From: a virus
Lineage: Duplodnaviria; Heunggongvirae; Uroviricota; Caudoviricetes
Reading direction: 5' to 3' (one strand)
DNA length: 43,336 bases
IMG/VR virus record: IMGVR_UViG_2554235189_000011
Coordinates: 1-43,336 of that record
A program made the position numbers and the translations under genes. Within the stretch, counting starts at the first letter, position 1, and every line of letters begins with the position of its first letter. Below are positions 32,294 to 32,642 of this stretch, one piece after another. The notes beneath the pieces were generated by a model. It was not told the origin of the DNA. It saw only the letters and a program-made list of their open reading frames with translations, and ran no database searches.

Positions 32294-32642
32294 TCAATTT
32301 AACCGTTCACGGGCCGTCTTCGCCTTATGACACGGCCAGCACAGACTCTGCAGATTACTGTCAGCATCAGTGCCGCCATGCGCTTTAGGGATGATGTGGT
32401 CAACAGTTTTCGCCTCACGCACCACACCAGCACGCAGACATAACTGACACAGGCCTTTGTCACGCTTCAGGACACGCGCGCATACTGTCCCACTTCGAAC
32501 CGTAGCCGCGCTGATGACGGGACTGGCCTGGCTTGTATTGCTTCCAGCCTTCGCTTTTGTGGCTTTCGCAATAGCCTGACGAGTCAGTGGTGGTATGGGG
32601 GCAGCCGCGAACGCGGCAGGCTTTTGGGATTCGTGGTGGCAT
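32294..32642 (-). pseudogene. HNH endonuclease, frameshifted
   Basis: N-terminal frame MPPRIPKACRVRGCPHTTTDSSGYCESHK... stops after ...SMRACPEA; C-terminal HNH core ...LCQLCLRAGVVREAKTVDHIIPKAHGGTDADSNLQSLCWPCHKAK continues in another frame; break at the CGCGCG repeat 32475-32480. Confidence 0.75.

Follow-up and report, generated by a model that had tools for sequence, protein, structure and literature searches.

A lineage-specific 2-bp deletion very probably inactivates the packaging-associated HNH endonuclease gene of an SfV-like prophage remnant in Escherichia coli IMT8073

In the Escherichia coli IMT8073 lineage, an SfV-like prophage remnant contains a gene for a packaging-associated HNH endonuclease that was very probably inactivated by a lineage-specific 2-bp deletion, in the course of neutral decay. 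IMT8073 is an aEPEC strain of ST794, and the remnant possesses an HK97-type head and packaging module together with a Mu-type contractile tail. The window, which is the whole stretch of 43,336 nucleotides that was analyzed, comes from the IMT8073 draft genome, contig ASXQ01000004.1, the locus of which is 100% identical to positions 11576-32214 of the window. Intact relatives of the HNH gene have 351 nt and encode 116 aa (WP_042974127.1). The parts of the gene in the window and the site of the lesion are as follows.

32294..32642, minus strand: HNH endonuclease pseudogene, 349 nt, as delimited by alignment with relatives
32460..32642, minus strand: N-terminal frame, 60 codons plus TGA, with the ATG at 32642-32640 and the TGA at 32462-32460
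32294..32476, minus strand: HNH beta-beta-alpha-metal core in the other frame, PF01844, R57-N116 of the intact protein
32475..32482, no strand assigned: lesion site, with the CG tract at 32475-32481 (CGCGCGC on the plus strand) and the gap between 32481 and 32482
32645..32656, minus strand: Shine-Dalgarno sequence AAGAGGA (32656-32650) and an out-of-frame ATG (32647-32645), from the sequence

What has been lost is CC of the coding strand, corresponding to GG of the plus strand, at the edge of the CG tract between 32481 and 32482; as a result, codon 54 lacks its third base and codon 55 its first. This position results from an alignment with six relatives, which were E. coli JNE132847 and NWU_3 and the phages SfV, ST64B, SKA5, and 118970_sal3. 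All six have two more bases than the window, and five of them contain an intact 116-codon ORF. Across the HNH gene, NWU_3 and JNE132847, the two closest relatives, are the same as the window apart from the two extra bases, and the four phages are 86-95% identical to the window in the HNH region. The coding strand of NWU_3 and JNE132847 is AGTAT[CC]GCGCGCGTGTCC, read as S-I-R-A-R-V, and the ancestral coding strand is AGTAT[CC]GCGCGCGTG, with the bracketed CC being absent from the window. The window allele at the junction is AGTATGCGCGCGTG, and the allele with the two extra bases is AGTATCCGCGCGCGTG. All six relatives read ATC CGN GNG CGT at the lesion site, so that codon 54 is ATC down to 86% identity.

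The first-pass annotation had separated the two frames at CGCGCG, which is indeed located at 32475-32480, and comparison with the intact homologs placed the 2-base gap of the window exactly there. It had also attributed the break to the loss of one CG unit. Size (2 bp) and location (tract edge) were correct, but not the bases, since CC and not CG was lost on the coding strand. Removal of a CG unit from the intact sequence would have yielded TATCCGCGCGTG, and the window has TATGCGCGCGTG. With CC missing at the edge of the tract in the alignment of six relatives, simple slippage of a repeat unit does not explain the lesion.

The HNH orthologue of 118970_sal3 (NC_031940.1, 37051-38315) has a lesion of its own: one base is deleted near the 3' end, and the record lists two small CDS in its place. 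Possibly this copy is damaged as well; a sequencing error in the deposited record is the alternative.

The deletion is a true mutation. Searches of complete E. coli genomes indicated how far it is distributed. A 581-bp query around the gene matched 1,208 of 5,426 genomes, and among the matches listed, all full-length ones had 583-584 bases and were annotated as “HNH endonuclease.” An 81-bp query across the junction matched 727 of the 5,426 genomes, at best with 81/83, and an ungapped match to the junction occurred in 0 of these 727 genomes, which means that the lesion is private to the lineage of the window. The exact 33-mer of the junction had no match in genome, viral, and metagenome contig collections; these do not contain this lineage, so this result is uninformative. 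The 117-aa product described below, which can be encoded only by the frameshifted allele, was on record in five Logan run assemblies (ERR366439, ERR366441, ERR366443, ERR366444, and ERR3317610). Over 2.1-3.4 kb, the corresponding contigs match the window with 100% identity, except for a single nucleotide polymorphism (SNP) at 33964 in ERR3317610, and all five carry both the GG deletion and A6 at 33726. The SNP marks ERR3317610 as a distinct sample, and the four ERR3664xx runs may be one strain that was sequenced repeatedly. The first-pass annotation had proposed a search at the read level for an additional unit; this was performed on the five read-set assemblies, and all of them carry the lesion. 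The support for the lesion comes from assembled read sets. A record of the 60-aa N-terminal product was not found in the look-up because gene callers choose the 117-aa ORF instead.

A sequencing error was suspected at first, due to the pattern of the other indels. The window and the JNE132847 prophage share 99.96% identity over 25.3 kb and differ by four indel events, all of them deletions in the window.

20245: private deletion, A7 to A6
21592: private deletion, G5 to G4
32481: private deletion, GG lost
33726: private deletion, A7 to A6

NWU_3 and the other relatives have the longer state at each of the four sites that they cover. Three of the four private indels are one-base homopolymer contractions (A7 to A6 twice and G5 to G4), the classic signature of 454 sequencing. 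Reads from 454 went into the IMT8073 assembly, and none of the four indels was found in any complete E. coli genome, as would be expected if the gene were intact in the cell and the gap and the contractions were errors of a 454/Illumina hybrid assembly. The explanation was dropped because independent read-set assemblies reproduce the indels, and it is now very unlikely. The HNH gap and A6 at 33726 are both present in each of five read sets that were assembled separately, including ERR3317610 with its own SNP, which indicates that the lesion is not an artifact; A6 is also present in a sixth run, SRR16764780, which covers only 33726. The tape-measure deletion at 21592 recurs in ERR163855 and ERR366439/40/44, and that at 20245 in a contig of ERR163855. 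Moreover, complete loss of GG would be atypical for a homopolymer miscall, and the source assembly, a Roche 454 plus Illumina hybrid (PMC3731852), had a coverage of about 170x with Illumina reads included.

What the deletion does to the protein can be read from the two frames. The N-terminal frame, starting from the ATG at 32642-32640, translates as MPPRIPKACRVRGCPHTTTDSSGYCESHKSEGWKQYKPGQSRHQRGYGSKWDSMRACPEA and keeps the native start codon and the native Shine-Dalgarno sequence. It comprises the C9-x4-C14...C25-x2-H28 zinc ribbon and extends halfway through the conserved YGSKWD helix, and this 60-aa piece by itself matched phrog_144, “HNH endonuclease,” with E=1.2e-14 at profile positions 17-77. 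The core frame translates as ...RVLKRDKGLCQLCLRAGVVREAKTVDHIIPKAHGGTDADSNLQSLCWPCHKAKTARERLN, with the stop at 32294, and matched the Pfam HNH profile PF01844 with E=5.7e-17 over positions 1-47 of 47. All four zinc ligands of the core, C66, C69, C102, and C105 ([CxxC]2: C66-x2-C69 and C102-x2-C105), are present, as are the catalytic residues H83, N97, and H106, so the core frame displays the profile match, the His...Asn...His residues, and the [CxxC]2 zinc site that characterize the HNH superfamily. The 116-aa protein obtained by repair of the frame matched phrog_144 at positions 17-137 with E=5e-46. The first-pass annotation had assigned the zinc-finger N terminus and the HNH core to different frames, and the matches to phrog_144 and PF01844 in separate frames bear this out. 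These matches fall on adjoining segments of the HNH family; the two frames therefore hold one family member in two successive parts, and the pattern is not a product of chance.

Group 1 zinc-ribbon (ZR)-HNH proteins carry ribbon and HNH domain on one polypeptide. The ancestral gene had this arrangement according to the alignments with the relatives; in the window, the ribbon motifs are present but in a frame other than that of the core and with a stop codon in between. A gene of the gp74 type has an intact ORF, and here it is interrupted by the 2-bp deletion with a premature stop after 60 codons. Sequence, motifs, and gene context place the gene in the packaging-associated HNH family and, with its ORF broken, it is to be classified as a pseudogene of that family.

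The frameshifted allele nevertheless contains a second ORF. In the frame of the core, a chimeric ORF of 117 aa begins with the ATG at 32647, located 5 nt before the true start. It is composed of 57 unrelated out-of-frame residues followed by R57-N116 and includes the entire PF01844 core. Gene callers report this ORF as an HNH protein. The spacer from the Shine-Dalgarno sequence is 7 nt to the native ATG at 32642 and 2 nt to the upstream ATG at 32647, so that initiation at the latter should be poor. The core itself has neither a start codon nor a ribosome-binding site of its own. Internal re-initiation was considered and rejected: beyond the lesion, the HNH frame offers no start before the GTG codons at V74/V75, which are already past the ligands C66 and C69.

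The lesion interrupts the YGSKWDSIRARVL helix, the conservation of which extends even to HK97 gp74. In the Group 1 ZR-HNH protein N.phiGamma, a 61-aa C-terminal HNH domain (F6) had “minimal nicking activity,” and a 76-aa fragment (F5) that retained the preceding helix was active (PMC3592412). The 60 native residues of the chimera resemble the inactive F6 and not the active F5, so by analogy loss of the HNH function is the most likely outcome.

Two alternatives would leave some function to the gene. The 60-aa ribbon peptide, the 117-aa chimera, or both might still provide nuclease activity. The chimeric ORF is open and includes the whole PF01844 core, and Xu and Gupta described natural side-by-side arrangements of a separate ribbon protein and a short HNH protein, “Group 4,” as well as some N-terminal deletions of N.phiGamma that retain activity (PMC3592412). 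A functional enzyme of this kind is nevertheless highly improbable: its start codon is 2 nt instead of 7 nt from the Shine-Dalgarno sequence, its native part matches the 61-aa F6 and not the 76-aa F5, the break disrupts the conserved helix, and a split at the position of the lesion was present in 0 of the 6 relatives examined. Alternatively, ribosomes may undergo a programmed +1 shift somewhere from codon 54 to the TGA at 32462-32460 and thereby restore a near-native protein, since a shift anywhere in the 7-codon overlap rejoins the HNH frame with no more than 5 residues changed. The overlap contains neither a +1 slippery motif of the CUU UGA type nor a stimulatory upstream Shine-Dalgarno sequence nor a long A/T run for transcriptional slippage, and a recoding site is not conserved, with the ORF being unbroken at this position in all six relatives; recoding is so improbable that it may practically be disregarded.

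The elements that adjoin the gene are those of a packaging module.

32219-32228, minus strand: cos cohesive end TGCCCGCCCC (10 nt), a single match in the window
31674..32168, minus strand: terS, terminase small subunit of the P27 family, 164 aa, intact; phrog_83 with E=1.7e-59, PF05119
29944..31677, minus strand: terL, terminase large subunit, 577 aa, intact; PF03354, PF20441

The 10-nt cohesive end TGCCCGCCCC was determined experimentally for the orthologous phage SfI (PMC3636060). In the window, it lies within an 8-nt inverted repeat, GGGGCGGG/CCCGCCCC (32219-32226 and 32260-32267), and the deposited SfV record is broken in the same cos region, at window positions 32236/32235, which is 7 bp from the 10-mer. 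The HNH stop at 32294 is 66 bp from the cos end. That the gene is situated beside cos, as had been claimed from the sequence at first pass, agrees with the SfI cohesive end at 32219-32228 and the start of terS at 32168. The length of terS is that of WP_000929175.1 of JNE132847, and terL is followed by genes for the portal, the S78 protease, and the HK97-type capsid, all intact. PF05119, PF03354/PF20441, PF04860, PF04586, and PF05065 were assigned on the gene calls of the ASXQ01000004.1 locus that is 100% identical to the window. Compared to JNE132847, the genes for TerS, TerL, portal, protease, and capsid differ by a single substitution, at 31697, and being identical or nearly so to intact genes, the terminase, portal, and capsid genes are intact, again as annotated at first pass. 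The context is that of gp74-type genes, with the HNH gene adjoining cos and terS/terL and with a P27 terS, portal, S78 protease, and capsid genes co-occurring.

A passage in PMC9410871, citing Kala et al. 2014, states that HK97 gp74 promotes cos cleavage by the terminase, and the HNH protein of phage sk1 (HrdP), encoded by a gene next to the terminase genes, is essential for completion of packaging and virion production (PMC12967558). With the HNH gene 66 bp from cos and followed by intact terS, terL, portal, protease, and capsid genes, cos cleavage would be lost together with the HNH protein. By analogy to gp74, the intact 116-aa protein with its zinc ribbon and HNH core should work together with TerS/TerL on the staggered cut at cos. 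Deletion of CC at the edge of the (CG)4 tract ends the native frame at codon 61, ahead of all zinc-binding and catalytic residues of the HNH core, and leaves the core without a start codon or ribosome-binding site of its own, so that cos cleavage and packaging should no longer occur. This loss can be soundly inferred from gene homology and position. The further claim that the lesion blocks virion production has to be divided accordingly: the part concerning cos cleavage holds as such an inference, but the prophage was not otherwise competent, due to several disabling lesions.

The other damage concerns the tail and the integrity of the element as a whole.

20383..22214, minus strand: tail tape-measure gene in two pieces of 212 and 398 aa, due to the 1-bp deletion G5 to G4 at 21592
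39706..40611, plus strand: IS3-family transposase remnant, annotation from JNE132847, 99.9% identity

The tape-measure gene is a single 610-aa ORF in the relatives, including JNE132847; the NCBI draft shows its deletion too, as do four Logan read-set assemblies. At about 39705, within a DNA methyltransferase gene, the late block is cut short by the IS3 remnant, which connects it to a ypjA remnant. This junction is common to JNE132847, which has an additional IS30 insertion. The late block is without its own replication, immunity, or integrase module. The first-pass annotation had implied that the HNH lesion was the obstacle in an otherwise competent prophage; the tape-measure frameshift at 21592, the deletions at 20245 and 33726, and the IS3 truncation at about 39705 speak against this assumption. 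Several lesions disable the element, and that in the HNH gene is just one of them and not the decisive one.

Concerning the two remaining deletions, that at 20245 alters the N terminus of a hypothetical gene at 19761-20291 (minus strand), and that at 33726 alters the C-terminal part, about 25 codons (about 75 nt), of a hypothetical gene on the opposite strand at 33172-33801 (plus strand).

Neutral decay would proceed as follows. The IS3-associated truncation that is shared with JNE132847 would already have severed the late block from replication, immunity, and integrase functions, and the HNH lesion would then have been a neutral event in an element that was unable to complete a lytic cycle anyway. 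The tape-measure frameshift, the two other 1-bp deletions, and the cut-off by IS3 make the HNH lesion one decay event among several. On the other hand, the lineage of the window accumulated 4 deletions versus roughly 2 to 4 substitutions in 25 kb, a ratio that is high for neutral change. Relaxed selection could account for this, as could a mutator episode or selection against late functions. In the last case, late expression in a remnant that does not excise would cut the chromosome at cos, and the host would have favored loss of HNH and tape-measure functions. For such a disarmament speak cos and terS/terL, which are intact and in situ, the inability of the remnant to excise or replicate alone, and the excess of disabling deletions over substitutions. 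A selected loss is improbable all the same, because every late gene is intact in the sister remnant of JNE132847, so that there is no general pressure for loss, and because two of the four deletions reside in genes unrelated to DNA cutting; moreover, with four events, which are too few, selection, drift, and a mutator episode are inseparable. Neutral decay is kept as the best explanation. That either the ribbon peptide and the chimera form a working two-piece nuclease or the loss of HNH was selected is an unlikely outcome. A two-piece nuclease would be an evolutionary snapshot of how Group 4, with its separate ZR protein and short HNH protein, originated, and a selected loss would protect the chromosome from being cut at the in situ cos site of a remnant that does not excise.

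The same element was also observed in another state of damage. In NWU strains (NWU_3, NZ_CP123009.1, 4384170-4390752), the HNH gene is intact, but the stretch directly after terS has become fused to the tape-measure gene through a deletion. In these strains, the element thus appears to have decayed independently and along another route.

Several other regions of the window should be mentioned. IS3-family remnants are located at both ends of the phage material, at 1-348 and 39706-40611, with a ypjA/ehaD autotransporter fragment at 40611-41051. The genes at 349-8231 (plus strand) for gam (PF06064), RecT, YqaJ exonuclease, Ea22, DUF551, and integrase are in vegetative order, on the strand opposite to that of the late block and beside the cargo/tail-fiber end of the block that bears the HNH gene. 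With JNE132847 used for orientation, this suggests that 349-8231 may be the left end of a second, tandem lambdoid prophage, instead of there being one prophage integrated via its own attP. The tail-fiber segment at 12512-14414 is bounded by short inverted repeats, adjoins the Pin-type resolvase gene pin at about 11896-12450, and is in the orientation opposite to that in JNE132847; the orientation together with the repeats and pin suggests that the segment may be an active or recently active inversion switch for host range. Four genes without an assigned function are located at 8273-11400, between int and pin, and “moron” genes at 32775-33801 (plus strand) are on the opposite strand between the lysis cassette and the HNH gene. 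There were no informative Pfam or PADLOC defense matches among the cargo genes at 32775-33801 or the int-pin genes at 8273-11400.

The HNH gene is an ordinary pseudogene of a known family in a cryptic prophage and nothing new in kind. It adds nothing to phage biology beyond the established partnership of HNH proteins and terminases. The frameshift is masked, however, because the 117-aa chimera has nearly the native length of 116 aa and still scores as an “HNH endonuclease” in automated calls, so automated annotation and tools for prophage completeness would count the packaging module as intact. For work on IMT8073 and ST794, the SfV-like element should be regarded as probably unable to make virions.

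Among the known systems, the closest are the HNH proteins of SfV (orf53), SfI, SfII, SfIV (orf54), and ST64B (sb56), which are direct orthologues with 86-94% nucleotide identity and 351 nt. In the SfV group and ST64B, the gene is the last late gene before an identical cos site, as in the window; the ORF is uninterrupted in SfV and ST64B, both of which were aligned, whereas the window lacks the CC at codons 54-55. Unlike the Shigella serotype-converting phages, the prophage in the window contains no gtr serotype-conversion cargo in the stretch examined.

HK97 gp74 is a more distant relative, with 38% identity over 65 aa to the repaired protein (BLASTP, E=8e-11). Both are small HNH proteins encoded at the right end of the genome, before cos and terS/terL and together with an HK97-type portal, protease, and capsid, and both have a helix-plus-HNH core, so that stimulation of TerL cleavage at cos would be the expected role by analogy. 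In contrast to the window protein with its C9/C14/C25/H28, gp74 belongs to “Group 3” without an N-terminal zinc ribbon (PMC3592412), and unlike gp74, the window copy is frameshifted and presumably inactive.

The best solved relative is the HNH protein of Geobacillus virus E2 (PDB 5H0M/5H0O), which aligned in full length with query residues 1-114 (E=2.5e-12), including the N-terminal MPxxxxxxCxxxGC...YCExH motif as well as the [CxxC]2 and H-N-H core. H83, N97, and H106 of the window align with H93, N109, and H118 of GVE2 HNHE, and C66, C69, C102, and C105 with C76/C79/C114/C117 of 5H0M. GVE2 HNHE differs in that it comes from a thermophilic Gram-positive phage, has insertions between ribbon and core, and has 38 N-terminal residues that are disordered in the crystal. 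The Group 1 ZR-HNH nickases N.phiGamma and N.BceSVIII share the order of ZR followed by HNH and the cos/terminase neighborhood (PMC3592412), and Xu and Gupta reported that genes of this group adjoin cos and terminase genes (PMC3592412). By its residues and their order, the intact 116-aa protein has the Group 1 zinc-ribbon HNH architecture; N.phiGamma and N.BceSVIII are site-specific nickases characterized in vitro, and the E. coli/Shigella protein is known from its sequence.
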